Source: Candidatus Rokuibacteriota bacterium
GTDB lineage: Bacteria; Methylomirabilota; Methylomirabilia; Rokubacteriales; CSP1-6
NCBI GenBank assembly: GCA_016200085.1
Contig: JACQFL010000050.1
Span: 115,088 to 179,087 of the forward strand
DNA: 64,000 nt
Direction of reading: 5' to 3'
This document shows, one piece after another, positions 1-61,322 of this stretch; within the stretch, counting starts at the first letter, position 1, and the number at the start of each line of letters is the position of its first letter. The notes beneath the pieces were generated by a model. It worked only from the letters and a program-made list of their open reading frames with translations, searched no databases and had not been told where the DNA came from. Both the position numbers and the translations under genes were made by a program.

Positions 1-207
1 GACGTCATCCTCGCCGAGCCCCGGGCGCTCATCGGCTTCGCGGGCCCGCGCGTGATCGCCGAGACCATCCGGCAGCCCCTGCCCGAGGGGTTCCAGCGCT
101 CGGAGTTCCTGCTCGAGCACGGCCAGCTCGACGCGATCGTGGAGCGCGCCGACCTCAGGGACACGCTCTGCCGCCTGCTCGTCTTCTTCGCCGCCGCCGA
201 GGCGTGA
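1..207 (+). CDS. accD: acetyl-CoA carboxylase carboxyltransferase beta subunit, C-terminal fragment (5' end is outside the window)
   Basis: Frame-1 translation [52 protein letters not shown]... matches the conserved AccD C-terminus. Its stop overlaps the folC start (GTGATGA), and accD-folC is a conserved gene pair. Confidence 0.7.
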
Positions 208-1520
208 TGACCTACGCCGAGGCGGTGGCGCGGCTCCTCGCGCTCCGCGGCGGCGAGTACACCGGGATGAAGCCCGGGCTCGAGCGGATCGAGGCCCTCC
301 TGGACGCCCTCGGGCACCCCGAGCGGGCCTACACGATCGCCCAGGTGGGCGGCACCAACGGCAAGGGCTCGGTCTGCGCCCTGCTCGCCGCCGCGCTGAA
401 GGCGGCCGGCCGCCGGGTCGGGCTGTACACCTCGCCCCACCTCGTGTCGTTCCGCGAGCGCATCCGGATCGACGGCGCCGCCATCGCCGAGGACGCGGTC
501 GCCGACGGGGTCGACGCGCTCGGCACGCTCTGTGCCCGCGTCGACGCCAGCGTCTTCGAGGCCACCACCGCGCTGGCCCTCGATCACTTCGCCCACGAAG
601 GCGTCGAGGTCGCCGTCCTCGAGGTCGGGCTCGGGGGCCGCTTCGACGCCACGACGGTCGGCCGGCCCGCCGTCAGCGTGCTCGGGCCCATCGACCTCGA
701 CCACCGCGAGTTCCTCGGCGACGCCCTCGAGGACATCGCCCGCGAGAAGGCCGCGATCATCCGGTCGGGCATCGCGGTGACGGCGGCGCAGGCCCCGGCG
801 GCGCAGGCGATCCTCGAGGCGCGCGCGGCCGAGGTCGGCGTGCCGCTGCTGCGCGAGGGCCACGAGCTCGCCGTCGAGGTCCTGGCGGCCGACGCGGCCG
901 GGCAGCGTCTGACCTGCCGCGGGCCCGGCTGGACGCTCGCCGATCTCGAGATCCGGCTGGCCGGCGCCTACCAGCCCGGTAACGCGCTGCTCGCCGTCAC
1001 CGCCGCGCGAGAGCTCGGGGCCCCGGAGGCGGCCATCCGCGCGGGGCTGGCCCGCGCCCGCTGGCCGGGGCGCTTTCAGGTGATCGCCGGTGAGCCCACG
1101 CTCGTCCTCGACGGTGCTCACAACCCGGCCGGCGCTCGGGCGCTCGCCGCCTCGCTGGCGCGCGTGTTTCCCGGGCGCGCCGTCACCCTCGTGATCGGCG
1201 TGCTGCGCGACAAGGACGCCCGGGGCATCGTCGCGGCGCTGACGCCCGTCGTCCGGCGCTGGATCGTCACCGCGCCGTCGAGCCGCCGGGCGCTGCCGGC
1301 AACCGATCTGGCGGGGCGCCTGCCCCCCGGTGTTGATGTCCGGGTGGCGGCGACCGTCGGGGAAGCCCTAGGGATGGCCACCCGCCCGGTCACGACCCCC
1401 ATTGTTTGTGTTGCGGGCTCGCTCACCGTCATCGGCGAAGCGCTCCGCACGCTGGGGAATGGCGATAAACCTTGCCCCGTGGAAAAGGGGGCTGATAGCA
1501 TGGAGTCCCTTTATTGGTGA
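204..1520 (+). CDS. folC: bifunctional folylpolyglutamate synthase / dihydrofolate synthase
   Basis: 438-aa ORF with the Mur-ligase P-loop GGTNGKGS, plus [17 protein letters not shown] and the DGAHNP motif typical of FolC. Confidence 0.85.
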
Positions 1521-1538
1521 GGACTTTCGAGACACTCA

Positions 1539-3773
1539 ATGACCCGCTTCCGCTCCGCCGTCGTGATCCTGGCCGGCCTCGTCCTGGTCGGGCCTTCTGT
1601 CGCGTCCGCGCAGATCACCCCGCCCCTCGGCGTGGCGCCCCCGACCTCGTCCCCGGGGGTGCCGGCAGCCGCCGCGCCCCCGGCGCCGGTCACCGTCACG
1701 ACCTCGGCCGGCGACGTGACCGTGATCGCCGACCGGATGGAGGAGGTCGCGCCCAGCAACCTCGTGGTGGCCACCGGCAACGTCGAGGTCACGAAAGGGA
1801 CCACGCGCCTGACGGCCGACCGGGTGGAGATCAACCGGGAGTCGGGTGACACCGTGGCAGTGGGCCGCCCCCTCCTCTACGACGGCCAGGACCGCCTGAC
1901 CGGCGACCGCATCGACTACAACTTGAAGACGGGCAGCGGGGTCATCCATCACGGCGAGGTCCACACTTCGCCCTACTACCGGATCGCCGGCGAGCGCCTG
2001 GAGCGCCTGGGCGAGGGTGTCTACCGGATCCGCCGCGGGATCTTCACCACGTGCGAAGACGACCCGCCCACGTGGTCCTTCCGCGCGGCGGACGCCACCG
2101 CCGATCTGGAAGCGGCGATCTACGGCACGAACGCCTCGCTGTGGGTCAAGAACGTGCCCGTGGTGCCGTATCTGCCGTTCTTCGCGGCGGCGCTCCGGCG
2201 CGAGCGACAGACTGGCTTCCTCGCGCCGCGCTTCGGCGACTCCTCGCGCAAGGGCGCCTTCACCGAGATCCCGTTCTTCTGGGCCATCTCCGACAGTCAG
2301 GACGCGACGGTGACGCTCGACGCCTACCAGAAGCGCGGCGTCGGCCTGAACCTCGAGTACCGCAACTACTTCTCGTCGACGGACAAGCTCGAAGCCACGG
2401 GCTTCTTCATCCACGAGAGCGAGGTCCGCGGCACGCTCAATCGCGGCTGGTGGGGCCTCAAGGACAGCGACGTCATCAGTCCCGGCTTCGTTCTCAAGGC
2501 CGACATCAACGGCGTCTCCGACGACGCCATCTTCCAGGACTACGCCGACCGGCTGCACTTCCGCAGCGCGCAGCGCGTCGAGTCGAACGTGTTCCTCACC
2601 AAGAGCTTCCCGACCTGGAACGTCGTCGGCAACCTGTTCTGGTACCAGGACTTGACCACCAGGCGGCCCATCGAGCTCTACCGGCTGCCCGACCTCCGCG
2701 CGGAGGCGGTCCGCCAACCCGTCCCCATTCCGGGGCTCCAGTCGTTCCTGTACGAGGGGCAGGCGAGCGCGGTGCGCTTCGTGCGGGAGCTCGGCTCGGA
2801 CGGCACCCGGCTCGATCTGCACCCGCGCCTCTCGCGCCCCATCTCCCTGCAGGGCTTCGCCACCGTCACGCCGTTCGTGGGCCTGCGCACCACGAGCTAC
2901 GACCGGACCGTGGTGGGCGAGCGGACGACCGCGGACGGCGCCACCGTCGAGAAGACCAGGGACGAGGTGCGCACGCGGGCCCTGAGCGAGATCGGAGCGG
3001 ATTTCGAGACCCGCGCCTCGCGGATCTTCGACGTGGGAGGCGCCGGCAACATCGACGCGATCCTGCACACCATCGAGCCGCGCGTCAACTACACGTGGGT
3101 CGAAGGCACCACGTTCAAGCACCTGCCGCTGTGGACGCCGGGGGTGGATGACATCCAGCCCTCGAGCACCTTCACGTACTCGCTCACGAACCGGCTCCGC
3201 GCACGCACCGTCGCCCCGGAGGGGACGGAGCCGGCGCGCTGGGAGCTCGCGCGCTTCGTCCTCTCCCAGACGGCCAACATGGAGAGCACCGCGCGGACGT
3301 TCGGGCCCGTCACCGCGGACCTCATCGTCGATCCCAACCGGATCTTTCGGTTCCGCGCCACCGGCAGCGTCGATCCCTACGGTCATGGTCACGCCGTGCA
3401 GTCGACGACGACCGACCTTTTCATTCGATATGATCCCATCGTGGCTTCCATCGGCACCCGCGCCAGCCAGCCCGACAAGGTGAACTTCCTGCAGGGGGGG
3501 CTCACCGCGGAGATCAATCGCTACCTGGTCGGGCGGTTCACCACCAACTGGGACCTGCGCACCGACACGTTCCTCGAGAACCGCGTGGGCGTCGACGCGA
3601 GGTTCGATTGTTACGCGCTCACGGTGGAGGTGGTGACCCGCAACAAGAGCGAGAACGAGATCCGGTTCGCGCTCACGCTCCTGGGCGTCGGCTCGCCGCT
3701 CGCCTCCGGGACCAAGGTGGGCCCGGGCGGCTTCGGCGCGGGCACCACCGGGGCGGAGAACCGCCTGCGGTGA
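1539..3773 (+). CDS. lptD: LPS-assembly outer-membrane protein LptD (OstA family)
   Basis: 744 aa. N-terminal signal peptide (MTRFRSAVVILAGLVLVGPSVASAQ), an OstA N-terminal domain (VIADRMEEV...GNVEVTKGTTRLTADRVEI) and a long beta-barrel-like C-terminal region. Confidence 0.85.
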   Translation: MTRFRSAVVILAGLVLVGPSVASAQITPPLGVAPPTSSPGVPAAAAPPAPVTVTTSAGDVTVIADRMEEVAPSNLVVATGNVEVTKGTTRLTADRVEINRESGDTVAVGRPLLYDGQDRLTGDRIDYNLKTGSGVIHHGEVHTSPYYRIAGERLERLGEGVYRIRRGIFTTCEDDPPTWSFRAADATADLEAAIYGTNASLWVKNVPVVPYLPFFAAALRRERQTGFLAPRFGDSSRKGAFTEIPFFWAISDSQDATVTLDAYQKRGVGLNLEYRNYFSSTDKLEATGFFIHESEVRGTLNRGWWGLKDSDVISPGFVLKADINGVSDDAIFQDYADRLHFRSAQRVESNVFLTKSFPTWNVVGNLFWYQDLTTRRPIELYRLPDLRAEAVRQPVPIPGLQSFLYEGQASAVRFVRELGSDGTRLDLHPRLSRPISLQGFATVTPFVGLRTTSYDRTVVGERTTADGATVEKTRDEVRTRALSEIGADFETRASRIFDVGGAGNIDAILHTIEPRVNYTWVEGTTFKHLPLWTPGVDDIQPSSTFTYSLTNRLRARTVAPEGTEPARWELARFVLSQTANMESTARTFGPVTADLIVDPNRIFRFRATGSVDPYGHGHAVQSTTTDLFIRYDPIVASIGTRASQPDKVNFLQGGLTAEINRYLVGRFTTNWDLRTDTFLENRVGVDARFDCYALTVEVVTRNKSENEIRFALTLLGVGSPLASGTKVGPGGFGAGTTGAENRLR

Positions 3774-4867
3774 TCCCGTTCATCGACCTCACCCGCCAGC
3801 ACGCCGGGCTCCGCGCCGAGCTCGTGGCGGCCACCGCCCGCGTCCTGGACTCGGCGCGCTTCGTGCTGGGCCCCGAGGGCGAGGCGCTGGAAGCGGAGCT
3901 GGCCGCCCTGGCCGGGGTGCGCCACGGCATCGGCGTGGGGTCGGGGACGGATGCGCTGCGCCTGGCCCTCACGGCCGTCGGGGTGGGCCCCGGCGACGAA
4001 GTCCTGACGCCGGCATTCTCGTTCGTGGCGTCCGCCTCCACCATCCTGATGGCGGGGGCCGTGCCGGTGTTCGTGGACGTCGACCCGGCCACCTTCGCGC
4101 TCGACCCGGACGCAGCGGAGCGCGCGATCAGCGCGCGCACGCGCGCCGTCGTCGCCGTGCACCTCTACGGCCACCCGGCGCCCATGGACGCCGTGGGCGC
4201 GCTCGCGCGCCGCCACGGGCTGGCCGTGATCGAGGACGCGGCGCAGGCGGTGGGCGCGTCGTATGCGGGTCGCCCCGTCGGCGCGTGGTCGGACGCCACC
4301 TGCCTGTCGTTCTATCCGACGAAGAACCTCGGCGCGGCGGGCGATGCGGGCATGGTGCTGACCGACCGTGACGACGTCGCCGCGCGCGTGCGGCGGCTGC
4401 GCCATCACGGCGACGGCGGGCGCTACCGCCACGTCGAGCTCGGCCTGTGCAGCCGGCTCGACGAGATGCAGGCGGCCGTGCTGCGTGTGAAGCTCCGGCG
4501 CCTGGCCGCCTGGACCGACGAGCACCGGCGGATCGCCGCGTGCTACGACGAGGGCCTGGCCGGCCTGCTGCTGGTGCGGCCCGTCGAGCGGCCGCCGGCC
4601 CGCCACGTCTATCATCTGTACACGGTGCGGCACCCGGACCGTGACCACCTCGCCAAGCAGCTGGCGGACCTCGGCGTCGGCACGGCCGTGCACTATCCGC
4701 TGCCCGTGCCCGGCCAGCCCCTGTTCGGCGGGGGCGGGGAGGGCCGCTGGCCCGAGGCCTGGCGCGCGTCGCGCGAGGTCCTGTCGCTGCCCTGCTTCGC
4801 CGGGATGCGGGACGAGGAGATCCACGCGGTCGTGCGGGCGGTGCGGCTCGCGTGCGGAGGGGCCTGA
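3770..4867 (+). CDS. DegT/DnrJ/EryC1/StrS family sugar aminotransferase (ArnB-like)
   Basis: VIPFIDLTRQHAGLRAELVAATARVLDSARFVLGPEGEALEAELA...GVGSGTDAL is typical of PLP-dependent sugar aminotransferases. A GTG start overlaps the lptD stop. The ORF-track start at 3608 is an upstream over-extension. Confidence 0.8.
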   Translation: MIPFIDLTRQHAGLRAELVAATARVLDSARFVLGPEGEALEAELAALAGVRHGIGVGSGTDALRLALTAVGVGPGDEVLTPAFSFVASASTILMAGAVPVFVDVDPATFALDPDAAERAISARTRAVVAVHLYGHPAPMDAVGALARRHGLAVIEDAAQAVGASYAGRPVGAWSDATCLSFYPTKNLGAAGDAGMVLTDRDDVAARVRRLRHHGDGGRYRHVELGLCSRLDEMQAAVLRVKLRRLAAWTDEHRRIAACYDEGLAGLLLVRPVERPPARHVYHLYTVRHPDRDHLAKQLADLGVGTAVHYPLPVPGQPLFGGGGEGRWPEAWRASREVLSLPCFAGMRDEEIHAVVRAVRLACGGA

Positions 4868-4868
4868 G

Positions 4869-6185
4869 ATGAGCGATCGCTCAGCGGCCGAGGAGCTCCA
4901 CGAGCGGCTCAGCGGGACGCCGACCATCGGCGTCGTGGGCCTGGGTTACGTCGGCCTGCCCCTGGCGGTGGCCTTCGCCGAGTCGGGCGCCCGCGTCGTC
5001 GGCATCGACCTCGATCCCGCGCGCGTGGCCGGCGTCACCGGCGGACGGAGCTTCGTGGAGGACGTGCCCACGGAGGCGCTGCGGCGCCTCGTGGCCTCCG
5101 GCCGTCTGAGCGCGACCGACGACTTCGCGGTCCTCAAGGACGCCGACGCCATCGTCATCTGCGTGCCGACGCCGCTCGGCAAGTCCAAGGAGCCCGACAT
5201 CTCGTTCGTCGTCGGCGCGGCCGACGCGGTGGCGGCGGTCGCCCGGCGGGCGCAGCTCGTGGTGCTCGAATCGACGACCTATCCCGGCAGCACCCAGGAA
5301 ATCCTCCAGCCACGGCTCGAGGCGCGTGGCCTCACGCCGGGCGAAGACGTCTTCCTCGCCTTCTCGCCCGAGCGCATCGATCCCGGCAACCGGCAGTTCG
5401 GGCTGCACAACATCCCCAAGGTCGTGGGCGGCCTCACCCCGCTCTGCCGCGAGCTCGCCATCGCGCTCTACGCGCGCATCACGCCCCGGGTGGTGACCGT
5501 CTCCAGCCCCGCCACCGCGGAGATGGTGAAGCTGCTCGAGAACACCTTCCGCTCGGTGAACATCGCGCTCGCCAACGAGTTCGCGATCATGTGCCGCCGG
5601 CTCGGCATCTCGGTGTGGGAGGTCATCGGGGCCGCCGCCACCAAGCCCTTCGGCTTCATGCCGTTCTATCCCGGGCCGGGGCTCGGCGGTCACTGCCTGC
5701 CCTCCGATCCGCACTACCTCAGCTGGAAGGTGCGCCTGGCCGGCTACGAGCCGCGCTTCATCTCGTTCGCCGACGAGATCAATCGCCAGATGCCCACGTA
5801 CGTCCTCCAGATGGTCACCGACGCGCTCAACGACGGCGGCCGCGCCGTGCGCGGCTCCCGCATCCTCGCCCTCGGCGTGGCCTACAAGCCGAACGTCGCC
5901 GATGTGCGCGACTCGCCCGCGCTCGAGATCGTCGAGGCCCTGGTGCTCAAGGGCGCCCGCGTCGCCTACGCCGACCCCTTCGTGCCCGCCATCAGCATCA
6001 GCGGGGTGAGCCTGCGCGCGGTGGACCTGGACGCGGTGGACGTCGCCGACTGGGACGTGGTCCTCGCGCTCACCGCGCACGCCAGCTTCGACTGGCCTCG
6101 GATCGTCCGCCGCGCGCGCCTCGTCATCGACACCCGGAACGCGACGGCGGCGCTCGGGCCGTCCCGCAACGTCATCAAGCTCTGA
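4869..6185 (+). CDS. nucleotide-sugar dehydrogenase (UDP-glucose/GDP-mannose dehydrogenase family; Ugd/WecC-like)
   Basis: MSDRSAAEELHERLSGTPTIGVVGLGYVGLPLAVAFAESGARVVGIDLD carries the N-terminal NAD Rossmann fold, with a catalytic-Cys region (GLGGHCLPSDPHYL). The ATG at 4869 lies just after the aminotransferase stop. Confidence 0.85.
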   Translation: MSDRSAAEELHERLSGTPTIGVVGLGYVGLPLAVAFAESGARVVGIDLDPARVAGVTGGRSFVEDVPTEALRRLVASGRLSATDDFAVLKDADAIVICVPTPLGKSKEPDISFVVGAADAVAAVARRAQLVVLESTTYPGSTQEILQPRLEARGLTPGEDVFLAFSPERIDPGNRQFGLHNIPKVVGGLTPLCRELAIALYARITPRVVTVSSPATAEMVKLLENTFRSVNIALANEFAIMCRRLGISVWEVIGAAATKPFGFMPFYPGPGLGGHCLPSDPHYLSWKVRLAGYEPRFISFADEINRQMPTYVLQMVTDALNDGGRAVRGSRILALGVAYKPNVADVRDSPALEIVEALVLKGARVAYADPFVPAISISGVSLRAVDLDAVDVADWDVVLALTAHASFDWPRIVRRARLVIDTRNATAALGPSRNVIKL

Positions 6186-7060
6186 TTCCCGCGCTGCTCT
6201 CGTCGCTCCGGCCCCGCCAGTGGGTCAAGAATCTGTTCGTCTTCGCCGGGCTCATCTTCGGCCACCGCCTGTTCACGCCCCTGGTGTGGCCCGCCCTTGG
6301 CGCCTTCGCCATCTTCTGCGCGCTGTCGGGGGCAATCTACCTGCTCAACGACGTGGCCGACCGCGACAAGGACCGGCTGCACCCGACCAAGCGGCTCCGG
6401 CCCATCGCCTCCGGCCGGCTGTCCGTGCCGGCCGCGGTGACGGCCGCCGTCGTGCTCGTCGCGGCGGGCCTGGCCGCGGGAACCCGCCTGGGCCACGCCT
6501 TCGTCGGCGTCGCCCTCGCCTACGCCATCCTCCTGACGGTGTACTCGGCATGGCTCAAGCACTTCGTCATCGTGGACGTGCTGGTGGTGTCGGCCGGCTT
6601 CGTGCTCCGGGCCGTGGGGGGGGCGGTGGCCGTGGATGTCGAGATCTCGGGCTGGCTCCTGATCTGCACGATCCTGATCGCGCTCTTCCTCGCCCTCGGC
6701 AAGCGGCGGTACGAGTACCTCGCGCTCGGCGAGGCGGCCGGCCGCTACCGCCCCATCCTCGCCGAGTACAGCGCGGGCCTGCTCGACCAGATGATCGCCG
6801 TGGTGACCGCCTCCACCGTGACCGCGTACGCGCTCTACACGATGTCGCCGGAGACGGTGGCCAAGTTCCACACGCACCTGCTGCCCGCCACGCTGCCCTT
6901 CGTGCTCTACGGCATCTTCCGATACCTCTATCTCCTGTACGCGCGGCAGCTCGGCGGCAACCCCTCGGAGCTCTTCCTCAACGACCTGCCCCTGCTCGCC
7001 AACACCGTGCTCTGGATCCTCGCGGTGCTCGCGCTCATCTACGGCCCGCGCCTCGGGTAG
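6182..7060 (+). CDS. UbiA-family prenyltransferase, decaprenyl-phosphate phosphoribosyltransferase-like
   Basis: LRPRQWVKNLFVFAGLIFG...YLLNDVADRDKDRLHPTKRLRPIASG carries the NDxxDxxxD motif and multiple TM helices. No ATG/GTG/TTG precedes the conserved N-terminus, so a CTG (6182) or ATT start is inferred. The TAG stop forms part of the TAGAAT box of the next gene. Confidence 0.7.
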   Translation: MIPALLSSLRPRQWVKNLFVFAGLIFGHRLFTPLVWPALGAFAIFCALSGAIYLLNDVADRDKDRLHPTKRLRPIASGRLSVPAAVTAAVVLVAAGLAAGTRLGHAFVGVALAYAILLTVYSAWLKHFVIVDVLVVSAGFVLRAVGGAVAVDVEISGWLLICTILIALFLALGKRRYEYLALGEAAGRYRPILAEYSAGLLDQMIAVVTASTVTAYALYTMSPETVAKFHTHLLPATLPFVLYGIFRYLYLLYARQLGGNPSELFLNDLPLLANTVLWILAVLALIYGPRLG

Positions 7061-7072
7061 AATCGGAGCGGC

Positions 7073-9718
7073 ATGCCGAGCCAGGTCGCCGTCCTGCGCA
7101 CGCGCCCCGAGACCGTCGTCGAGGACTACGGGCGCCTCATGCGGCTGGTGAAGTACGACCAGATCCTCTCGCGCGACACCGATCTCATCCTCAAGCTGAA
7201 CCTCTCGTGGACGAAGTACTTCCCGGCGTGCTCGAGCCAGCCCTGGCAGGTCGACGGCATCCTCAAGACGCTGGTCGACGACGGCTACGAGCGGCGGCGC
7301 CTGCTCCCCGTCGAGAACAAGACCGTGGTCACCAACCCCGACGAGGGCTGCCGCGCCAACAAGTGGCGGCCCGTGCTCCAGCGCCACGGCGTCGGCTTCA
7401 CCGCGCTGCCCGACGTCGAGTGGATCGTCTATCCGTTCAGGTCGCCCCTGCTGAAGCTCAACCGGATCTTTCCCGAGGGCATCCAGATCCCGAAGCTGTA
7501 CCCGGGCAAGAACGTGCTCCACCTGCCCACCGTGAAGTGCGTCCATCCAGATACGGAGATCTTGCTCAGCGACGGCAGATTGATTGGTGCTGAGAGCCTC
7601 GTGAAGGAGTGGCAGGTTCGGGAGCCCGTGCAGTGGCTGCCTGACGGCGATGCCGTCAGTGAAGGTGAGACGAGCGTGGTCTCACTTCGACCAGACGGGC
7701 TCCGCGGTGATCATGCCACCCACTTCTGGCGTACCCCGGTGACCGATGGGCTCGTGTGTGCCATCCGGACTCGTACTGGTCGGCAGGTGACGACATCGAC
7801 GGCACACCCATTCCTTACGCCTGAGGGTTGGAAGCGCGCGACAGACATACGTGTCGGCGACAGAATCGCGGTGGCCCGAAGAATTAGAATTCAAGGTCGC
7901 AGCCAACCGTTGCCCGCAGTCCCAGCGCTGGGCCACGACTCGCTCGATCTCGAGCAGTTGGAGTTTGAGGAGCAACCGCGGTTAACCGTACACGCCCAGC
8001 GCTCGATTGTTCGTGACTATCTCGACGGCGAAACGGTCGCGGAGATCGCTCGCAGGCTTCATGTGGGGCGAAAGATAGTACTGCGATTGCTCGACCGGTG
8101 CGGTGTCACTCTACGTGGTCCGTGGGTGTGGGCCCGTGTTCCCGGCGAGACATCGACGGACTTTTGGCGCTGGATGGGCTACTTCGTTGCGGAGGGTTGG
8201 GCGAGAGAGAACCATGGGTCGTTGGCGATCAACGTCGCCAACAACGATCCCGAGATCCGATCTGATTACATGGCTTTGTGCAAATCGCTATTCGGAGTAT
8301 TGCCTAGAGAGAACGCTGGGACGCTGCGGTTTAATGCCTCGAATTTGAGAAGCTTGTTCGCGCATCTCGGTTTTCGTCCGCCGACGAACGCTGCGACGAA
8401 GCATGTGCCCGATGTGTTGTTCAAGTGCCCCGATGAGGAAATCTCGGGATTCCTATCGGGGTACTTCGACGGGGACGGCACAGTTGGACCCGACGGTGTA
8501 CACGCAACCACGAAGAGTCCGCGCTTGGCCAGTCAGATCCAGATGCTGCTGGCGCGTCTCGGTGTACTCGCGTTTGTAGGTGTGTCGCGCTGCAAGGCCA
8601 CCAATCGCCCATGGACGAAGACTCAGGACTACGCAAAGATCTCGATCTATGGGCAGGATGTCGTTACATTCGCGCGTTGGGTCGGGTTTCGTTGCGCCCG
8701 CAAGCGAGCCCGGCTCCAAGAACTGGTACGTCGGCGGGCGAACGGCAGGCAACCAAGTCACTGGGATACTGTTCCAGTGCCTCCCGCTTTGTTTCGATTC
8801 GTGCGGGAGGGGCTCAAGATCACCCATCGCAGTTCGGAACGCCAGAGTGCGGTCAGCAACATTGAATGGAAACATACTGAACCTACTCGACCAGTCGTTC
8901 AGTATTTCGTTGATCTATTCGAACGACATGATACGAGCGGCCGTTTCCGCGATGAGATCGCGTATATGCGCTACCTCGCGCAAGACGACATTGCGTGGGA
9001 TCGAGTGTCGGACAAGGCTGAAAAGGCAGCTGAAGTCCCGTACCTCTACGATCTTTCAGTACGCGATTCGCGGTCGTTTATCGGCAACGGAATCGTTCTC
9101 CATAACACCCACGGCCACTCTGTCACAACGGGAGCGATAAAGAACAGCTTCGGAGGCTTGCTGAAGGAAGCCCGACACTATGCTCATGAGTTTATGCATG
9201 ACGTACTGGTTGACCTCATGTATATGCAGCGTGAGATCCATCCAGCCGCTCTGGCGGTGATGGACGGGACGGTCATGGGCGACGGCGCCGGCCCCCGTAC
9301 GATGGTGCCGCGCGAGGGCAACCTGATCCTGGCCTCGGCGGACCAGGTCGCCATCGACGCCATCGCCGCGCGGATCATGGGCTTCGACCCGCTCGCCATC
9401 CCGTACCTCCGGATGTGCCACGAGCGCGGGCTCGGGGTGGCGGACCCCCGCGACATCGAGATCGTCGGCGACGAGGACGCGGCGCGGGTCAGCATGGGCT
9501 TCAAGACCAGCCGCAGCCTGGTGATCTGGGGCGACCAGCTCATCCGGCGCGGCCCGCTCAGGCCGCTCAAGCGCCTGCTGCTGCACTCCCCCCTGGTGGT
9601 CTGGGCCCCCTTCGCCTCGAACGTCTACCACGACCTGCTCTGGTACCCGACGGTCGGCCGCGCCCGCATCCGCGCCTTCCGCGCCACGCCCTGGGGAGCC
9701 CTCTTCGAGAAGTACTGA
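7073..9718 (+). CDS. DUF362-family protein interrupted by an in-frame intein (precursor 881 aa; predicted spliced product ~358 aa)
   Basis: The N-extein (155 aa, ...ILKLNLSW...KNVLHLPTVK) and C-extein (203 aa, THGHSVTTGAIKNSFGGLL...VMDGTVMGDGAGP...) join to a normal DUF362-like protein. The internal 523 aa have intein splice-junction and LAGLIDADG motifs. Confidence 0.8.
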   Translation: MPSQVAVLRTRPETVVEDYGRLMRLVKYDQILSRDTDLILKLNLSWTKYFPACSSQPWQVDGILKTLVDDGYERRRLLPVENKTVVTNPDEGCRANKWRPVLQRHGVGFTALPDVEWIVYPFRSPLLKLNRIFPEGIQIPKLYPGKNVLHLPTVKCVHPDTEILLSDGRLIGAESLVKEWQVREPVQWLPDGDAVSEGETSVVSLRPDGLRGDHATHFWRTPVTDGLVCAIRTRTGRQVTTSTAHPFLTPEGWKRATDIRVGDRIAVARRIRIQGRSQPLPAVPALGHDSLDLEQLEFEEQPRLTVHAQRSIVRDYLDGETVAEIARRLHVGRKIVLRLLDRCGVTLRGPWVWARVPGETSTDFWRWMGYFVAEGWARENHGSLAINVANNDPEIRSDYMALCKSLFGVLPRENAGTLRFNASNLRSLFAHLGFRPPTNAATKHVPDVLFKCPDEEISGFLSGYFDGDGTVGPDGVHATTKSPRLASQIQMLLARLGVLAFVGVSRCKATNRPWTKTQDYAKISIYGQDVVTFARWVGFRCARKRARLQELVRRRANGRQPSHWDTVPVPPALFRFVREGLKITHRSSERQSAVSNIEWKHTEPTRPVVQYFVDLFERHDTSGRFRDEIAYMRYLAQDDIAWDRVSDKAEKAAEVPYLYDLSVRDSRSFIGNGIVLHNTHGHSVTTGAIKNSFGGLLKEARHYAHEFMHDVLVDLMYMQREIHPAALAVMDGTVMGDGAGPRTMVPREGNLILASADQVAIDAIAARIMGFDPLAIPYLRMCHERGLGVADPRDIEIVGDEDAARVSMGFKTSRSLVIWGDQLIRRGPLRPLKRLLLHSPLVVWAPFASNVYHDLLWYPTVGRARIRAFRATPWGALFEKY
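7538..9106 (+). mobile_element. intein with LAGLIDADG homing-endonuclease domain (523 aa) inserted in the DUF362 gene
   Basis: Starts with Cys (CVHPDTEILLSDG). Block-B TxxH is present (TTSTAHPFLTPEGW). LAGLIDADG motifs are WMGYFVAEGW and SGYFDGDGTV. The intein ends GIVLHN and is followed by Thr (+1 nucleophile). Local GC is clearly lower than the flanks. Confidence 0.8.
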
Positions 9719-9748
9719 GAGCCCGTGAAGAACCTGACGCGACGTCGA

Positions 9749-9813
9749 GGGGCGCCACGGGTTCCCCGGGGCGCCCCGAGCGTTGGGGGGCTTGGGGGCG
9801 CCCGGAGCCCCCA
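9749..9813. repeat. GC-rich double-hairpin intergenic element, copy 1 (second copy at 45716..45781)
   Basis: Hairpin ggggcgcc...ggcgcccc followed by the conserved gagcgttggggggcttgggggcgcccggagccccca. A near-identical block occurs at 45744..45781. Confidence 0.7.
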
Positions 9814-9848
9814 TGTGGTCAGTCGCGACGCGGTAGAATGACGCTGTC

Positions 9849-11273
9849 GTGAGCCCCTCCCCGCCAGGGACCGTGCGTGTGCGCTTCGCTCCGAGCCCGA
9901 CCGGCCATCTGCACATCGGCGGCGCGCGGACGGCGCTCTTCAACTGGCTGTTCGCCCGCCACCACGGCGGGGCGTTCATCTTGAGGATCGAGGACACCGA
10001 CCGTTCGCGCTCCACCGACGAGACCATCACGTCGATCGTCGACGCACTGGGATGGCTGGGCCTGGACTGGGACGAGGGCCCGCCGGCGCCAGGCTACCGG
10101 CAGACCGAGCGGATGGACCTCTACCGCGCGCACGCGGCGCGGCTGCTCGCGGCGGGCCGGGCGTACTACTGCGACTGCCCGCCCGAGATGCTGGAGCGCG
10201 AGCGGCAGGAGGCCGAGCGGCGCAAGGAGACCTTCCGCTACTCCGGACGATGTCGGGGGCGCGGGTTGACGATGGGCGCGCTCAGGCTGCGCATCCCGGC
10301 CGAGGGCGCGACGGTGGTCAACGACCTCATCCACGGGCCGGTAACCTTCGAGCACCGCCAGCTCGACGACTGGATCCTGGTCCGCACGGACGGCACGCCA
10401 ACCTACAACTTCTGCGTGGTCGTCGACGACGTGACCATGCGCATCACCCACGTCATCCGCGGCAACGACCACCTGTCGAACACTCCCAAGCAGATCCTGT
10501 GCTACGAGGCGCTCGACTATCTCGTGCCGGAGTTCGCCCACGTTTCGATGATCCTCGGCGCCGACCGCCGCCGGCTGTCCAAGCGTCACGGCGCCACCTC
10601 GGTGCAGGCGTTCCGCGAGGCGGGCATCCTCCCGGAGGCGATGGTGAACTACCTCGCCCGGCTGGGCTGGGCGCACGGCGACCAGGAGGTATTCTCGCGC
10701 GAGGACCTCGTCGAGCTCTTCGACATCAAGCACGTCGGGGCCTCGGGCGCGGTGTTCGACCAGGCCAAGCTCGAGTGGCTGTCGCAGGAGTACGTCAAGC
10801 GGCTGCCCGCGGCCGACCTCGCGCGGCGGCTGGGGCCGTTCCTCGCCGCGGCGGGACTGGTTCCGCGCGAGACGCCGGGCTGGCTCGAGGGCGTGGTGGA
10901 GACCTTGCGCGAGCGGGCGAAGACCCTCGTGGAGATGGTGGAGCGCGGCCGGTTCTACTTCGAGCGGCCGGCCGGCTACGACCCGAAGCCGGCCCCGAAG
11001 TTCCTGACTGCCGAGGGCGCGCGGCGGCTCCGCCTGCTCGCCGAGCGTCTCGCCGCGGACCGGGTGTTCACCGCGGCGTCGATCGAGGCGGTGTACCGCG
11101 GGCTGATCGAGGCGCTCGGGCTCACGCTCGTGGATCTCGCCCAGCTCACCCGCCTGGCCGTCACGGGGACGACGGCCTCGCCGCCCATCTTCGACGTCCT
11201 CGCGCTCCTCGGCCGCGAGGAGACCGTGGCGCGGCTCGCGACGGCCCGCGCGGTGGCGGAGGCCGTCCGGTGA
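9849..11273 (+). CDS. gltX: glutamate--tRNA ligase
   Basis: VRVRFAPSPTGHLHIGGARTALFNWLFARHHGG (HIGH motif) and the KMSKS-like LSKRHG. 474 aa. Confidence 0.9.
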   Translation: MSPSPPGTVRVRFAPSPTGHLHIGGARTALFNWLFARHHGGAFILRIEDTDRSRSTDETITSIVDALGWLGLDWDEGPPAPGYRQTERMDLYRAHAARLLAAGRAYYCDCPPEMLERERQEAERRKETFRYSGRCRGRGLTMGALRLRIPAEGATVVNDLIHGPVTFEHRQLDDWILVRTDGTPTYNFCVVVDDVTMRITHVIRGNDHLSNTPKQILCYEALDYLVPEFAHVSMILGADRRRLSKRHGATSVQAFREAGILPEAMVNYLARLGWAHGDQEVFSREDLVELFDIKHVGASGAVFDQAKLEWLSQEYVKRLPAADLARRLGPFLAAAGLVPRETPGWLEGVVETLRERAKTLVEMVERGRFYFERPAGYDPKPAPKFLTAEGARRLRLLAERLAADRVFTAASIEAVYRGLIEALGLTLVDLAQLTRLAVTGTTASPPIFDVLALLGREETVARLATARAVAEAVR

Positions 11274-11955
11274 GGCTCCTCCTGGCCCGTCACGGTCAGT
11301 CCGTCTGGAACGAGGTCCGCCGGTTCCAGGGGACGACCGACGTCGGCCTCTCGCCCCTCGGCCGCGCCCAGGCGGCGGCCCTCGGCTCCGCGCTGCGCGG
11401 ACGGCCGATCGTCGCCGCGTACGTCAGCCCGATGCGGCGGGCCCGCGAGACGGCCGAGATCGCGCTGGCCGGCGCCGCCAGGGCGATGCGGAGCGATCCG
11501 CGCGCGCTCCCGGTGCCCAGCGTGCCGCTGATCGCCGTCGAGGAGCTGCGCGAGCTGTCGCTCGGCGAGTGGGAGGGCTACACGGTCGACGAGATCCGCG
11601 CCCGCGACGGCGATCCCTATCAGGCCTGGCTGCGGGCGCCGCTCGACTGCCCGCCGCCGGGCGCCGAGCCCCTGGACGCCGTGTGCGAGCGGGTGGTGCG
11701 CGCCATCGACCGGATCGTCGCGACCCACCACCGCGGGGAGGACGTGCTGGTCGTCGCCCACGGCGGGGTCATCAGCACCTACGTCTGCCACCTGCTCGGC
11801 TGCTCGTTCAACGCGCTCTGGCGCTTCCGCGTGGACAACGCCTCGCTGACCGTCGTGCGCCCGCCGCGGCTCAGCACCATCAACGCCACCGACCATCTCA
11901 CCGACGGGCTCCGCTCGCCGATCTGGCAGCGGCCCGCCGCGGCCTCGAGCGCGCC

Positions 11956-11959
<4 letters not shown>
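11270..11959 (+). CDS. histidine phosphatase family protein (phosphoglycerate mutase-like)
   Basis: VRLLLARHGQSVWNEVRRFQGTTDVGLSPLGRAQA... carries the RHG catalytic motif. The GTG start overlaps the gltX stop. The 635-aa ORF-track entry 10052..11959 is an artefactual N-terminal extension. Confidence 0.8.
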
Positions 11960-13942
<1,983 letters not shown>

Positions 13943-23196: not shown

Positions 23197-25370
23197 TGCC
23201 TGCCACCATCGAGAGCGACGACAAGCCCCGGCGCGCGAGAAAGACGCGCGAGGGGCATCGCTGGCTGCGCGAGGTCAAGGCGATCGTCATGCTCGCCGGC
23301 GGCGGGTTCGCGGCCCTCGCGCTCGCGACGTTCGATCCGACCCGGAGTCCCGCGGACCAGCACGGCCCGGGCGGCCCCGTCGGGGTCTGGCTCGGCTGGG
23401 CGCTGTTCTGGGCGTTCGGCTACGCCGGCTTCCTCTTCCCCCTGCTCGTCGCGGTGGTGGGCGCCAGCGCCTTCGCGCGGCCCATCGTCGCGCGCGGCGT
23501 GACGCCCTTCGTCGGCATCGGGGCCCTGCTCGTCAGCGCTACCGGCCTGCTCGGGCTCCTGTCCGAGACGGATCTGCTGCGCGGGGGGGCCGTGGGGTGG
23601 GCCGTCGCGGAGGCCCTGCGCGCCAGCCTGGGCACGGTCGGGGCCTGGCTCGCCCTGGTGAGCGTCGTGCCGATCGGCGTGCTCTGCGTGACGCAGGTCT
23701 CGTACGCCGCGCTCTCACGCCACGTGACGGGGCGGCTGGCGCGCCTCCGGCGCCAGCAGGCGGCGGCGCGGCCTCGCCGCGCGGCCGCGACGATCGTGGA
23801 GACCGGCCCGGACGCGGCCCTCGCGCTGCCGGAGCCCGCGGAGGAGACCCCGCCCCCGCCCGTCGTGGTCGAGCCGCGCCGCGCGAAGTCGATGACGATC
23901 AAGGAAGGCCTCGCGTGGCAGGAGACCTTCGACTTCGGCAGGGGCGGCGCGGAGGCGTTCCAGCTCCCGCCCGTGGGCCTGCTCGCCACGCCCGCGGCGA
24001 CCGAGCGCACGGTGACGCACGAGGAGCTGCAGGAGAACGCCGAGACCCTGCGCCGCAAGCTGCAGGATTTCGAGGTCGAGGGCCGCATCGTACAGGTGAG
24101 CCCCGGGCCGATCATCACCGCCTACGAGTTCGAGCCCGCGGCGGGGATCAAGATCAGCCGGGTCGTGAACCTGGCCGACGACCTGGCCCTGGCCCTCAAG
24201 GCCGCCGCGGTGCGCATCGTGGGCCCGATCCCGGGACGCGGCACGGTGGCCATCGAGGTCCCGAATCGCGAGATGGCGACGGTCTACCTGCGCGAGATCT
24301 TCCTGTCGAGCGACTTCGCCGACTCCAGGGGCCGGCTGCCGCTCGCGCTCGGCAAGGACGTCACCGGCGGGCCCGTGGTGGCCGATCTCGCCGCCATGCC
24401 GCACCTGCTCGTGGCGGGCGCCACGGGGACCGGCAAGTCGGTCGGCCTCAACGCCATGATCTGCTCGATCCTGTACAAGATGACGCCGGCCGAGGTGCGC
24501 TTCCTGCTCATCGACCCCAAGCGCCTGGAGCTGTCGGTGTACGAGGGGATCCCCCACCTGCTCTCGCCCGTGGTCACGGACGCCAAGGAGGCGGCGGCGC
24601 GCCTGCGCTGGATCGTGGGCAAGATGGACGAGCGCTACAAGGAGCTGCAGCTCAAGCAGGTGCGCAACATCGAGGGCTACAACCGCGCCGTGGAGGAGAA
24701 GGACCGGCTGCCGTACTGGGTCGTCGTCATCGACGAGCTCGCCGACCTCATGATGGTCTCCGCGGGCGAGGTGCAGACCGCGCTGGTGCGGCTGGCCCAG
24801 ATCGCGCGCGCCGTCGGCATCCACCTGCTCGTGGCCACCCAGCGCCCGTCGGTCGACGTGGTCACCGGGCTCATCAAGGCGAACTTTCCCACGCGCATCG
24901 CCTTCCAGATGGCCTCGAAGGTCGACTCCCGCACCGTGCTCGACAGCAACGGGGCCGAGCAGCTGCTCGGCCGCGGCGACATGATCTACATGCCGCCCGG
25001 GGCCAACAAGCAGATGCGAGTGCACGGCGCGTGGGTGGCCGACGAGGAGGTGCGCGGGGTGTGTGACTTCCTCCGCACGCAGGGCACGGCCGTGTACGAG
25101 GAGGTCGTGCTGCCCACGAGCGAGGCCGACGGCGGCGAGGGGGGCGAGGCGGCCGAGCGCGACGATCTCTACTGGGACGCGGTGCACCTGGTGATCGGCC
25201 AGCGCCAGGGCTCGATCTCGTTCCTGCAGCGGCGGATGCGGCTCGGCTATCCCAAGGCCGCGCGCTTCATCGACATGATGGAGCAGGATCGCATCATCGG
25301 GCCGGGGGACGGGGCCAAGCCGCGCGAGGTCCTCGTGGGCCCGGAGTATCTCGCGAAGCGCGGGAAGTAG
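23196..25370 (+). CDS. ftsK: DNA translocase FtsK/SpoIIIE
   Basis: N-terminal TM segments, a motor domain (AGATGTGKSVGLNAMICSILYK, DELADLMMV) and a C-terminal gamma domain. ATG overlaps the rnj stop (TGATG). The ORF-track start at 21456 is artefactual. Confidence 0.85.
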   Translation: MPATIESDDKPRRARKTREGHRWLREVKAIVMLAGGGFAALALATFDPTRSPADQHGPGGPVGVWLGWALFWAFGYAGFLFPLLVAVVGASAFARPIVARGVTPFVGIGALLVSATGLLGLLSETDLLRGGAVGWAVAEALRASLGTVGAWLALVSVVPIGVLCVTQVSYAALSRHVTGRLARLRRQQAAARPRRAAATIVETGPDAALALPEPAEETPPPPVVVEPRRAKSMTIKEGLAWQETFDFGRGGAEAFQLPPVGLLATPAATERTVTHEELQENAETLRRKLQDFEVEGRIVQVSPGPIITAYEFEPAAGIKISRVVNLADDLALALKAAAVRIVGPIPGRGTVAIEVPNREMATVYLREIFLSSDFADSRGRLPLALGKDVTGGPVVADLAAMPHLLVAGATGTGKSVGLNAMICSILYKMTPAEVRFLLIDPKRLELSVYEGIPHLLSPVVTDAKEAAARLRWIVGKMDERYKELQLKQVRNIEGYNRAVEEKDRLPYWVVVIDELADLMMVSAGEVQTALVRLAQIARAVGIHLLVATQRPSVDVVTGLIKANFPTRIAFQMASKVDSRTVLDSNGAEQLLGRGDMIYMPPGANKQMRVHGAWVADEEVRGVCDFLRTQGTAVYEEVVLPTSEADGGEGGEAAERDDLYWDAVHLVIGQRQGSISFLQRRMRLGYPKAARFIDMMEQDRIIGPGDGAKPREVLVGPEYLAKRGK

Positions 25371-36637: not shown

Positions 36638-38101
36638 ATGGCCGAAGTCAAGAGCGACCGGAAGCAAGCCCTCGACCTCGCGATCGCCCAGATCGAGCGG
36701 CAGTTCGGCAAGGGCGCGGTCATGCGCCTGGGCTCGGGATCCCCGCTGGAGGAGATCGCTTCCATTCCCACCGGGGCCCTCTCGCTCGACGTGGCCCTCG
36801 GCGTGGGCGGCCTGCCCCGGGGCCGGGTCAGCGAGATCTACGGCCCGGAGTCGTCGGGCAAGACCACCCTGGCCCTGCACGTCATCGCCGAGGCCCAGCG
36901 GCTGGGCGGCGTGGCGGCCTTCATCGACGCCGAGCACGCCCTCGACCCGATCTACGCGAAGAGGCTCGGGGTCAACATCGACGAGCTGCTGATCTCCCAG
37001 CCGGACACCGGCGAGCAGGCGCTCGAGATCGGCGAGACCCTGGTGCGCTCCAACGCCGTCGACGTCATCGTGGTCGACTCGGTGGCCGCCCTCGTGCCCC
37101 GCGCCGAACTGGACGGCGACATGGGCGACTCGCTCCCCGGCCTGCAGGCGCGGCTCATGTCCCAGGCCCTCCGCAAGCTCACCGCCGCCATCTCGCGCTC
37201 GGGCGCCGTCGTCATCTTCATCAACCAGATCCGCGAAAAGATCGGCGTCATGTTCGGGTGCTTTCACTACAGCACCCGCGTCGTCCTCGCCGACGGTCGG
37301 ACGGAGAAGATCGGCAAGATCGTCAACCAGCGGCTGCCGGTCGAGGTGCTGTCCTGGAATCCGGTCACGCGCAGGATCGAGCCGCGGCGTGTCGTGAACT
37401 GGTTCGACAACGGGCGTACCGAGGAGTTCGTCCAGTTCGAGGTCGAGGGAGGGCGCTCCGGTCGACGCTGCTTCGCCGCCACCGAGAACCATCTGATCTT
37501 CACGCCCGGTGGTCCAGTGAAAGCGTGTGATCTGCAGGCGGGTGATCACGTCTTGGTGTCCGTGGAAGACTTCTCACGCGCTGTCCCTGGACGCATCGTC
37601 AAGCGCTACGTCAAGCCCCCGACGCGCTCGATGCACCGGTTCGACATCGAGGTCGAGGGGCACCACACGTACCTGGTCGACGGAGTGGTGGTGCACAACT
37701 CGCCCGAAACCACATCGGGCGGGCGCGCGCTGAAGTTCTACGCCTCCATCCGGCTCGACGTGCGCCGCGTGGAGACGATCAAGCAGGGGACCGAAGCGGT
37801 GGGCGTGCGCACCAAGGTGAAGGTCGTCAAGAACAAGCTGGCGCCGCCGTTCCGCGAGGCGGAGTTCGACGTGATCTACGGCGAGGGCATCTCCAAGTCG
37901 GGCACCGTGCTCGACGCCGGCGTGGAGCAGGGACTCGTGGAGAAGTCCGGCACCTGGTACACGTACAAGGGCGAGCGCATCGGCCAGGGCCGCGAGAACG
38001 CCAAGAAGTGGCTGCAGGAGAACCAGCCGGTGCTCTTCGACCTCGAGGCGAAGCTCCGGGAGGCGCTCGGCCTCCGCGTGCCGGTCCCGCTGAAGGCCTG
38101 A
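36638..38101 (+). CDS. recA: recombinase RecA, interrupted by a mini-intein (precursor 487 aa; predicted spliced product ~340 aa)
   Basis: Walker A ([12 protein letters not shown]), [10 protein letters not shown], and ...KIGVMFG|[intein]|[23 protein letters not shown]. The exteins rejoin to the canonical RecA sequence. Confidence 0.9.
37259..37699 (+). mobile_element. RecA mini-intein (147 aa, no endonuclease domain) at the RecA-a site
   Basis: Starts [22 protein letters not shown]. Block B is [12 protein letters not shown]. It ends LVDGVVVHN, followed by Ser. Confidence 0.85.
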
Positions 38102-54341: not shown

Positions 54342-54469
54342 GCCGTCATTTTACCAGCCCACCCCTGACAACCTCCGGCAGCCGCGTACGGGTAGCCCGG
54401 TGGGCGGACGGCGTCGACATTGCCGCCTCCCGCCCGGACGTACTGCGTGCAGGGCTCGGGATCCCGTTC

Positions 54470-54590
54470 TGATCGAGATGGGGGGTTCGACCCCCCCATG
54501 CCCCTTCCACGCTCGGCCCGCCCCGGCCAAGCCAAGGCGGGCCTCGATCTCGGGCGAACTGAGAGGGGGTTCGACCCCCCATACGCTCGA
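54470..54590. repeat. two copies of a GGGGGTTCGACCCCC hairpin motif in the rarA-ddl spacer
   Basis: gatggggggttcgacccccccatgc and gagagggggttcgaccccccatacgc lie ~90 nt apart. Confidence 0.6.
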
Positions 54591-54613
54591 GCGTTCGGCA
54601 CCCTCGGCGGGAG

Positions 54614-55954: not shown

Positions 55955-56625
55955 CAGGGCGCGCCGCTCCAGCGGGTGACGAGCCACGCGGGCAGCGTCG
56001 CGAGATCGTCGGTCCAGGCCACCGGGGTGACCTTGAAGCGGTCCATCTCGCCCGGTCGCGGCCGGTACGCCACGAACGGCACGCCGACGGCGGCCGCCGC
56101 CACCCCGTCCACCCACGAGTCGCCCACGACCACCGCCACCCCGACCTCGCCGAAATGCGCGGCGATCACCCGCCAGCCGTCCGGGTCGGGCTTCAGCGCG
56201 CGCATGTCGTCGCGGGTGACGACGAGGTCGAGGTGCTCGAGCAGCCCGAGCCGCGCGAGCGCGGGCAGCGAGACCTCGCGCGCGTTGTTCGTCCAGACCG
56301 CGGTGCGAAAGCCCGCGGCGCGCGTGCCGGCCACGGCCTCGAGCGCGCCGGCCTCGAGCGTCGCCTGCTCCATCGCGCGGTGCTCGCGCTCGAGGGCCAG
56401 GCGCCAGAGGTCGGCCTCGAGGGCGGGCGCGTGCGCGCGGCAGTGGGCGAGCAGCTCGCCGATGCGGTAGCGCTCCTGGCGGGGCGGCAGGGGGCCGCAG
56501 CGCGCCTCCAGCCTCCGCCGCATCTCGGCCGCCATCGCGGCGAGGTCGAGCGGGGTGCGCACGAGCGTGTGATCGAGGTCGAAGACGCAGAGTCCCACGG
56601 CGTTCGTAGGATATCGTGCTACCAT
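55954..56625 (-). CDS. HAD-family hydrolase
   Basis: CVFDLDHTL (motif I) ... [17 protein letters not shown] (motif IV). The start is taken at MVARY (or MVTLS at 56640). The stop overlaps the rarA start. Confidence 0.65.
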
Positions 56626-56638
56626 CGAGAGCGTCACC

Positions 56639-61014: not shown

Positions 61015-61016
61015 GC

Positions 61017-61322
61017 GCTCGTCGCGTATCGGCGGTGCGAGGGCTGGGGGCCGGGGCGGCCTCGGGCGATCCGACTGACTGTGATTTCAAACGTCGTGTC
61101 CGCGCGCCACGATGCGCGCGCGACGCCTTCTCCCCGTACCCAACGGATCGCCCGAGGCCGCCCCGGCCCCCAGCCCTCGCACCGCCGCGTGGTGAGAGCG
61201 CGCTTTAGCGCTTGATTTCGCGCGAGTCGCGGCGCGCGGACACGCCCATGGAGATCACGGTCAGTCGGATCGCCGAGGCCGCCCCGGCCCCCAGCCCTCG
61301 CACCGCCGATACGCGACGAGCG
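61017..61322. repeat. nested inverted-repeat element (MITE/REP-like)
   Basis: Terminal arms of 63/64 bp (61017..61079 and 61260..61322) are inverted with respect to each other. An internal 43-bp copy of the arm core lies at 61145..61187, plus internal palindromes. Confidence 0.75.

Follow-up and report, generated by a model that had tools for sequence, protein, structure and literature searches.

The DNA considered here is a stretch of 64,000 nucleotides from a Candidatus Rokuibacteriota bacterium (contig JACQFL010000050.1, positions 115,088 to 179,087 of the forward strand), hereafter called the window, in which a gene for a UbiA-family enzyme is directly followed by a gene for a protein of the DUF362 family. 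As read in the window, which has a G+C content of ~70–75%, the genes of this cluster are arranged on the + strand in the order folC, lptD, aminotransferase, dehydrogenase, UbiA, DUF362, gltX, histidine phosphatase, and Na/Pi-PhoU transporter. The folC gene (204–1520) ends 18 nt ahead of lptD (1539–3773; Pfam LptD, LptD_2, and LptD_N), which we take as upstream context only, and the TGA stop of lptD overlaps, within GTGA, the GTG start of a gene for a DegT/DnrJ/EryC1-family sugar aminotransferase (3770–4867; PF01041, 371 bits). After a 1-nt gap comes an NDP-sugar 6-dehydrogenase gene resembling those for UDP-ManNAc/HexNAc dehydrogenases (4869–6185; TIGR03026, 421.8 bits), the stop of which overlaps the start region of the UbiA gene (~6182–7060). 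The UbiA stop and the DUF362 start are 12 nt apart, and the DUF362 gene (7073–9718), preceded by GGAG, encodes 881 amino acids including an intein. It is followed by gltX (9849–11273), and a CobC-like histidine phosphatase of the His_Phos_1 family (~11300–11959) lies two genes 3′ of DUF362. The five genes from lptD to DUF362 were, hence, all found in the order, on the strand, and with the overlaps and short gaps that an earlier note on this DNA had claimed. With respect to the functional unit, the best reading is that it is a widespread two-gene module of UbiA and DUF362, and not the four-gene set proposed in that note.

The UbiA protein was matched by PF01040 with 86 bits and by NF008977 with 268.5 bits, above the cut-off of 234, and its best match in the PDB was Rv3806c (8j8j; 115.6 bits, E 3.8e-32), chlorophyll synthase being the runner-up with 24 bits. 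It has the N-terminus LRPRQWVKN and the motif NDVADRDKD, which fits NDxxDxxxD, so that its assignment to the decaprenylphosphoryl-5-phosphoribose (DPPR) synthase type, suggested earlier from these motifs, was borne out by the model score and the top structural match. The opposite outcome named in the earlier note, that the enzyme might prove orthologous to a known quinone or haem prenyltransferase, was not what we found: the haem o synthase, UbiA, and MqnP models gave no more than 40 bits on the window protein, and this identity was rejected.

To place these matches at the level of ligand binding, we compared the window UbiA and 45 DUF362-linked UbiAs in Rv3806c numbering, taking the roles of individual residues in binding phosphoribosyl pyrophosphate (PRPP) and decaprenyl phosphate from the structure paper (PMC10994848). 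According to that work, the pyrophosphate is bound by a K/R cluster of R22, K87, R90, and K143, the 5-phosphate by K28 and Y70, Mg2+ and ribose by N73 and D77, and the lipid phosphate by K191, and the phosphoribose-binding residues are absent from ordinary UbiA prenyltransferases (PMC10994848). The window enzyme retains R22, K28, Y70, N73, D74, D77, D81, K87, R90, Y138, K143, and K191. Among the linked UbiAs, R22, K28, Y70, N73, D74, D77, K87, R90, Y138, and K191 are kept in 45/45 and D81 in 44/45, and position 143 holds K in 40 and R in the other 5. Y157 is replaced by Phe in the window enzyme, as in some mycobacteria, and K208 by Pro, with the neighbouring R207 retained. The retention of the PRPP-binding residues points to PRPP as the donor, and not to a UDP-amino or UDP-uronic sugar; judged by its sequence, the window UbiA is probably a polyprenyl-phosphate phosphoribosyltransferase of the DPPR-synthase (PPPRS) type that uses PRPP. 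The start of its gene is unusual. The reading frame contains no ATG, GTG, or TTG from 5615 to 6284, and in Rokubacteria relatives the start is a GTG ~10 codons before LRPRQW, just past the dehydrogenase stop. Translation in the window probably begins at CTG 6182 or ATT 6185, both non-canonical, and the missing canonical start may reflect non-canonical initiation, translational coupling, or a sequence error.

The DUF362 gene consists of an N-extein (7073–7537; aa 1–155, ending ...LPTVK) collinear with intein-less homologues, a 523-aa intein with a LAGLIDADG homing endonuclease (7538–9106; Pfam Intein_splicing and LAGLIDADG_3, TIGR01445 and TIGR01443), and a C-extein (9107–9718; aa 156–358 of the spliced protein, starting THGHSVTTGAIKN). 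The intein begins with Cys1, ends in ...HN before Thr+1, contains two LAGLIDADG motifs, and is predicted to splice. The presence of an intein had been claimed before, and the splicing blocks, the HINT and LAGLIDADG domains, and the in-frame extein were all found. Conceptual splicing gives a protein of 358 aa that matches intein-less homologues end to end with 83–88% identity among the best matches listed, nearly all of which are 358-aa and intein-less, and several of which are labelled Methylomirabilota/Rokubacteria. The G+C content is 58% in the intein vs 67% in the exteins. The insertion point lies exactly between the invariant K155 and T156-H157, and the same site, K/T(C)-H, is occupied by an intein in six further 50%-identity cluster representatives (P0123, P0126, P0130, P0140, P0149, and P0152), one with a mini-intein of ~175 aa and the rest with full-size inteins of ~410–530 aa where both ends were found; this site of DUF362 orthologues is a recurrent intein target. 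A second intein occurs in the window, a 147-aa mini-intein (37259–37699) in recA (36638–38101), which runs from CFHYS to VVVHN with S as the following residue, is inserted at GVMFG/SPETT, and has a G+C content of 64% vs 68–70% in its exteins.

In the spliced DUF362 protein, PF04015 covers residues 39–244. Among the 80 orthologues compared, 36 positions are invariant (80/80), including K41, N43, S45, W46, K155, T156, H157, R178, H179, H182, D191, H200, D208, R219, D234, and D239, and C53 and K167 are each kept in 79/80 and H186 in 78/80. The protein, hence, looks like an enzyme with an invariant site rich in Lys, His, Asp, and Arg. A structure model of P0001, which is 88% identical (40 diverse relatives; predicted local distance difference test 93.8, predicted template modelling score 0.93), suggests a LarA fold, which agrees with the placement of DUF362 and LarA_N in one Pfam clan (PMC11770544). 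At the level of sequence, LarA_N (PF09861) did not match the DUF362 protein, on which PF04015 was the only match even at E up to 10, and searching the PDB sequences with a profile of DUF362 returned no LarA and nothing meaningful. Conversely, genuine LarA proteins of Loigolactobacillus (P0275–P0277) carry a precomputed PF04015 match besides LarA_N, and the two Pfam models overlap in sequence. The orthologues are modelled to end in long aromatic-rich helices, and some distant paralogues end in a hydrophobic tail; the aromatic C-terminal helical region may sit on the membrane. In the literature on DUF362/PF04015, we found no functional study; the papers found refer to the family solely as an uncharacterised domain or use it as an outgroup of LarA. 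In other proteins with DUF362, fusions to CBM9 and dockerin occur (PMC5742341).

To determine how far the pair is conserved, orthologous loci were collected with a 5-sequence DUF362 alignment as query in one genome per species, which gave 80 loci of 46–82% identity, and the surroundings of 81 non-redundant DUF362 loci were searched for UbiA within a radius of 8 kb by tblastn with the window proteins and by hidden Markov model search. The DUF362 orthologues of the 81 loci have 46–84% identity, and UbiA was found within this distance in 49/81. In 42 of the 81 it directly precedes DUF362 in the same orientation, the two genes being −7 to 352 nt apart, and in 7 further loci it is arranged otherwise. 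Co-occurrence of the two genes across genomes, proposed in the earlier note as a test, was therefore confirmed, and in many phyla: the pair spans Rokubacteria, Acidobacteriota, Actinomycetota, Krumholzibacteriota, Peptococcaceae, other Bacillota, WOR-3, Planctomycetota, and DPANN archaea. According to record titles, DUF362 loci also occur in Zixibacteria, Ignavibacteria, Latescibacterota, and Chloroflexota and, among archaea, in Woese-, Parv-, Alti-, and Promethearchaeota and Methanosarcinales; orthologues without an adjacent UbiA are found in Chloroflexota and further archaea, among others. Taxon labels of metagenome-assembled genomes (MAGs) may carry binning errors, and several independent monoderm and archaeal loci concur. 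DUF362 is 46–57% identical between Rokubacteria and archaea and, at nearly every locus, better conserved than its UbiA partner.

No other family accompanies the pair to a similar extent. In all-against-all clustering of open reading frames (ORFs), every further family was limited to 13 loci or fewer, GT1/GT4 and GT2 glycosyltransferases being the next most frequent, and DUF362 is the sole soluble enzyme consistently linked to UbiA in the loci surveyed. In the loci without an adjacent UbiA, no other conserved partner was found, the top neighbour being a polysaccharide deacetylase with DUF3473 (5 ORFs in one lineage group). No fusion of UbiA with DUF362 was found; the long representatives annotated as fusions are DUF362 fragments joined to GltX or Omp85, apparently through errors of gene calling. 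In P0247 and P0192, a DUF362 fragment is combined with LPG_synthase_TM, an MprF-like domain of flippase type, and LPG_synthase_TM domains also flank DUF362 in a few loci; they may represent an alternative flippase partner or a gene-call artefact. A PRPP synthetase gene stands beside the pair in one Krumholzibacteria-type lineage with its usual order spoVG-prs-L25-pth (L024, L033, L043, L047, L048, L051, L053, and L054), where L053 bears a Patescibacteria label that may be wrong, given its Krumholzibacteria-type gene order. This adjacency looked suggestive, but because it is limited to a single lineage with its usual gene order, it is not counted here.

The genes found around the linked pairs suggest what the module may produce. 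PMT_2, of the GT-C fold, is the commonest Pfam family flanking UbiA-linked pairs (8 ORFs, and 3 more where UbiA is not adjacent), and GT-C neighbours were confirmed singly in five loci (L026, L031, L063, L072 with two genes, and L074). The proposed system is represented most fully by L063, from an anaerobic-digester MAG, in which the genes for UbiA (7067–7975), DUF362 (7965–9065), a GT-C protein (9059–10867), and an SMR-family protein resembling the ArnE/ArnF flippase subunits (10861–11208) overlap one another. L074 has the order UbiA-DUF362-GT-C-pyruvyltransferase, L026 has DUF362-x-GT-C beside UbiA and a WecG/TagA enzyme, and the archaeal L072 has GT-C-DUF362-GT-C beside UbiA. These arrangements recall the pentofuranose systems of C. 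youngae and the mycobacterial arabinan route, which comprise a synthase, a 5-phosphatase, a flippase, a GT-C enzyme, and optionally an epimerase, and in which the 5-phosphatase step has been recruited from unrelated folds, PAP2 and HAD (PMC11127046). We lean, with moderate confidence, to the view that the pair makes a polyprenyl-phosphate pentofuranose donor for extracytoplasmic glycosylation that is not specific to lipopolysaccharide (LPS). As the conserved residues suggest, UbiA would, on the cytoplasmic side of the membrane, move 5-phosphoribose from PRPP onto polyprenyl phosphate, and DUF362 would then process the 5-phosphoribosyl head group. To judge from related loci and not from the window, the polyprenyl-phosphate pentofuranose would be flipped across the membrane and transferred by a GT-C enzyme to an extracytoplasmic glycan, a target that would differ with the lineage.

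As for what DUF362 does in this scheme, removal of the 5-phosphate is the role that we favour, tentatively and by analogy, because every known pathway of this kind needs that step after phosphoribosyl transfer and because L063 maps one to one on the minimal known system when DUF362 is assigned to 5-dephosphorylation. Redox epimerisation is somewhat unlikely, and some other activity is given the same weight. Dedicated 5-phosphoribose phosphatases (the PAP2 type of Rv3807c or a HAD PRP domain) were absent from the window cluster, as was DprE1/DprE2 or an ORF13-type short-chain dehydrogenase/reductase (SDR) epimerase, which was not recurrent among the neighbours either, and none of the PAP2, HAD, and DprE1/E2-type (FAD_binding_4) families occurred in at least two flanking ORFs of the 42 linked loci.

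Several points weigh against the proposed donor pathway and against a phosphatase role of DUF362 within it. The ribose-O3 contact Q135 is Leu in the window UbiA and varies among N, L, Q, M, and T across the family, so that the PRPP donor or its binding may differ. No UbiA was found within 8 kb of the DUF362 orthologue in 28/81 loci. GT-C, flippase, PAP2, and HAD genes were all absent from the window ORFs scanned, and the downstream steps, hence, rest on other lineages. We know of no LarA-fold phosphatase, the characterised relatives being all racemases or epimerases. In addition, CobC, an α-ribazole-5′-phosphate phosphatase, takes a 5′-phosphate off a ribosyl compound, and the CobC-like histidine phosphatase of Rokubacteria (122.9 bits against a cut-off of 162.9; syntenic in Rokubacteria only) could supply the 5-phosphatase step there in place of DUF362, so that DUF362 could then play another role.

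One such role is that of a LarA-like hydride-shuttling epimerase with a nickel-pincer nucleotide or a related cofactor, which would act on polyprenyl-P-ribose, whether this still carries its 5-phosphate or not, invert its C2 or C3 in one active site to give polyprenyl-P-arabinofuranose or -xylofuranose, and replace DprE1/DprE2 or an SDR epimerase. We consider this unlikely, although it is the alternative that survives best. The module occurs in DPANN archaea, in which cofactor synthesis is usually minimal, and neither the ORFs scanned in the window nor the nearest neighbouring genes included larB, larC, or larE; moreover, a separate enzyme would still be needed for the obligatory phosphatase step. 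In favour of it, DUF362 and LarA_N share a Pfam clan (PMC11770544) and PF04015 matches the three Loigolactobacillus proteins mentioned above, the known pentofuranose pathways employ oxidation-reduction epimerases that act on lipid-linked ribose (PMC11127046), and sugars are among the described substrates of nickel-pincer enzymes (PMC13524815). A profile comparison by hhalign provided points on both sides. It was made with a shallow LarA alignment (120 sequences, at least 77% identity), its register is taken as a lead only, and its probability was <1%, that is, not significant. Along this path, H157 and K167 of DUF362 fall on H174 and K184 of LarA with identical H-x9-K spacing, whereas the Ni ligand H200 of LarA lies in a LarA-specific insertion, the cofactor-ribose Asp D72 and the phosphate Arg R75 fall on S45 and K48, and the second catalytic His, H108, has no clear counterpart, so that none of these four has a convincing equivalent. 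The fusions of DUF362 to CBM9 and dockerin (PMC5742341) indicate that those proteins are extracellular, which is at odds with the idea that a cofactor loaded in the cytoplasm is characteristic of the whole family. That the subfamily as a whole is a LarA-like hydride shuttle on a lipid-linked sugar and a single-protein substitute for DprE1/DprE2 in many uncultured phyla and archaea is a doubtful extension of the idea, but one that, if true, would extend nickel-pincer chemistry beyond soluble hydroxy acids to the biosynthesis of membrane glycolipids.

It is improbable that the pair makes a product other than a donor, such as a ribosylated or prenylated membrane lipid or a cofactor for growth, with the GT-C adjacency being secondary. 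Such a role would suit the unusual conservation of DUF362, mostly above that of its UbiA partner, its position among housekeeping genes in Rokubacteria, the 28 loci with neither UbiA nor GT-C nearby, and its being an intein target, since inteins typically reside in essential, slowly evolving proteins. However, genes for GT-C, SMR flippase-like, GT1/GT2/GT4, WecG, and pyruvyl-transferase proteins recur near the pair, and we know of no non-glycan role of Rv3806c-type enzymes.

The two sugar enzymes encoded upstream of UbiA probably lie outside the conserved module. Contigs with the 84%-identity homologue have the order folC-lptD-dehydrogenase-UbiA-DUF362-gltX, with the aminotransferase absent, and in relatives a co-directional array extends from trp genes, accD, and folC through gltX, the folC-lptD-...-gltX order being common to Rokubacteria relatives only. 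The dehydrogenase stands beside the pair only in L001–L006 and L011, all from Rokubacteria, and, as a distantly related protein, in L061; the aminotransferase is confined to Rokubacteria loci, being absent from L001–L004 and present in L005 and L011. The claim that the four genes form a conserved unit was, hence, not upheld, and the adjacency to lptD is a lineage-specific gene order within a housekeeping block.

The earlier note had also called the aminotransferase ArnB-like and the dehydrogenase Ugd-like and had taken the two as the front end of the 4-amino-4-deoxy-L-arabinose (L-Ara4N) route. The family assignments hold, to the DegT family by PF01041 and to the NDP-sugar dehydrogenases by TIGR03026, but the specific ones do not. 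The aminotransferase is closer to DesV-type 2oga (316 bits), QdtB (292), and WbpE (285) than to ArnB (186–196) and gave 220.7 bits on the ArnB model, the cut-off of which is 631, and the dehydrogenase, with 39.7 bits, falls far short of the 757 required by PRK15057, the Ugd model of the E. coli type, its nearest PDB relatives being the UDP-ManNAc/HexNAc dehydrogenases 4r16 (229 bits) and Cap5O (207 bits). Neither protein attains an NCBIfam equivalog cut-off. Since the dehydrogenase is far from Ugd and the aminotransferase is nearer to C-3 aminotransferases than to ArnB, the L-Ara4N lipid A pathway was rejected, and in the scanned parts of the window neither ArnA, ArnC, and ArnT nor DprE1/DprE2 was found, the absence of ArnC/ArnT and DprE1/DprE2 having been noted correctly before. 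The two enzymes are most like the WbpA/WecC/Cap5O dehydrogenases and WbpE C-3 aminotransferases of the UDP-ManNAc(3NAc)A pathway, whose WbpB, WbpD, and WbpI types are missing from the window cluster; as ordinary nucleotide-sugar enzymes, they probably belong to a UDP-HexNAc-uronic or 3-amino-sugar route and stand here by a gene order specific to Rokubacteria.

A four-step route in which the aminotransferase, dehydrogenase, UbiA, and DUF362 together make a lipid-linked amino or acidic sugar for LPS is very improbable, since its support, which is the tight co-directional packing straight after lptD and the dehydrogenase kept beside UbiA in L001–L006 and L011 with a distant one upstream of the L061 pair, is set against packing that reaches folC, accD, trp genes, and gltX in the same manner, an aminotransferase missing in close relatives, a dehydrogenase missing outside Rokubacteria and L061, PRPP-binding residues kept in UbiA with nothing suggesting an NDP-sugar donor, and the presence of the pair in monoderms and archaea, both without LPS. 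With PRPP as the donor, the polyprenyl-phosphate-linked amino or acidic sugar previously proposed as the product of the four genes becomes mechanistically unlikely, and the proposed link to LPS is weak, because the pair is also present in Peptococcaceae, other Bacillota, Actinomycetota, and DPANN archaea. Thus, a plausible operon-based inference is corrected: the packing behind lptD belongs to a long housekeeping array and not to a four-step LPS pathway.

Other features of the window were recorded in passing. A promoter and terminator scan of positions 1–12000 yielded no promoter and a single weak terminator, numbers below those of shuffled controls, and the sole match of the Rfam and tRNA scans was a tRNA-Val gene (TAC; 63546–63621), which follows a gene for a tungsten-type aldehyde:ferredoxin oxidoreductase (AFOR_N and AFOR_C; 61346–63196). 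Long ORFs at ~23200–25300 and ~54350–61200 had no Pfam match in the frames tried.

Both mycobacterial arabinan, a drug target, and a recently defined class of glycan-decorating systems depend on lipid-linked pentofuranose donors. The module described here would extend this type of pathway to many uncultured phyla, monoderms, and archaea and would, for the first time, set a highly conserved branch of DUF362 in a functional context. It would bring new enzymology either way, as a non-homologous 5-phosphoribose phosphatase or as a LarA-like epimerase on a lipid-linked sugar.

Compared with LarA itself, which has ~425 aa, DUF362 has 358 aa, ~10% identity, and a distinct aromatic C-terminal helical extension. 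Its H-x9-K is placed, in the non-significant alignment, like the catalytic H174 and the cofactor-tethering K184 of LarA, whereas the Ni-ligand His and the second catalytic His of LarA have no convincing counterpart in it, and LarA is linked to larBCE and hydroxy-acid metabolism, whereas DUF362 is linked here to a membrane phosphoribosyltransferase. Compared with the known pentofuranose systems (C. youngae O1/O2 ORF15/14/12 with or without ORF13; Rv3806c, Rv3807c, DprE1/E2, Rv3789, and Aft/Emb), the UbiA enzyme is likewise of the Rv3806c type, and of the tested residues that bind PRPP and the lipid phosphate it keeps all but two. The likeness extends to the position of the pair beside GT-C genes in related loci and to the SMR transporter in L063, and the logic would be the same, from a lipid-linked donor through a flippase to extracytoplasmic transfer. 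Unlike those systems, the window pair has no GT-C or flippase nearby in the ORFs scanned, and the accessory slot that they fill with a PAP2 or HAD phosphatase and with DprE1/E2 or an SDR enzyme is occupied here by a DUF362 protein with a predicted LarA fold. The UbiA/DUF362 pairing also has a much wider distribution, which includes archaea and numerous uncultured phyla. Taken together, lipid-linked pentofuranose donor pathways being already known, the locus is best described as a widespread, uncharacterised UbiA(PPPRS)-DUF362 variant of them, which is what is new here.

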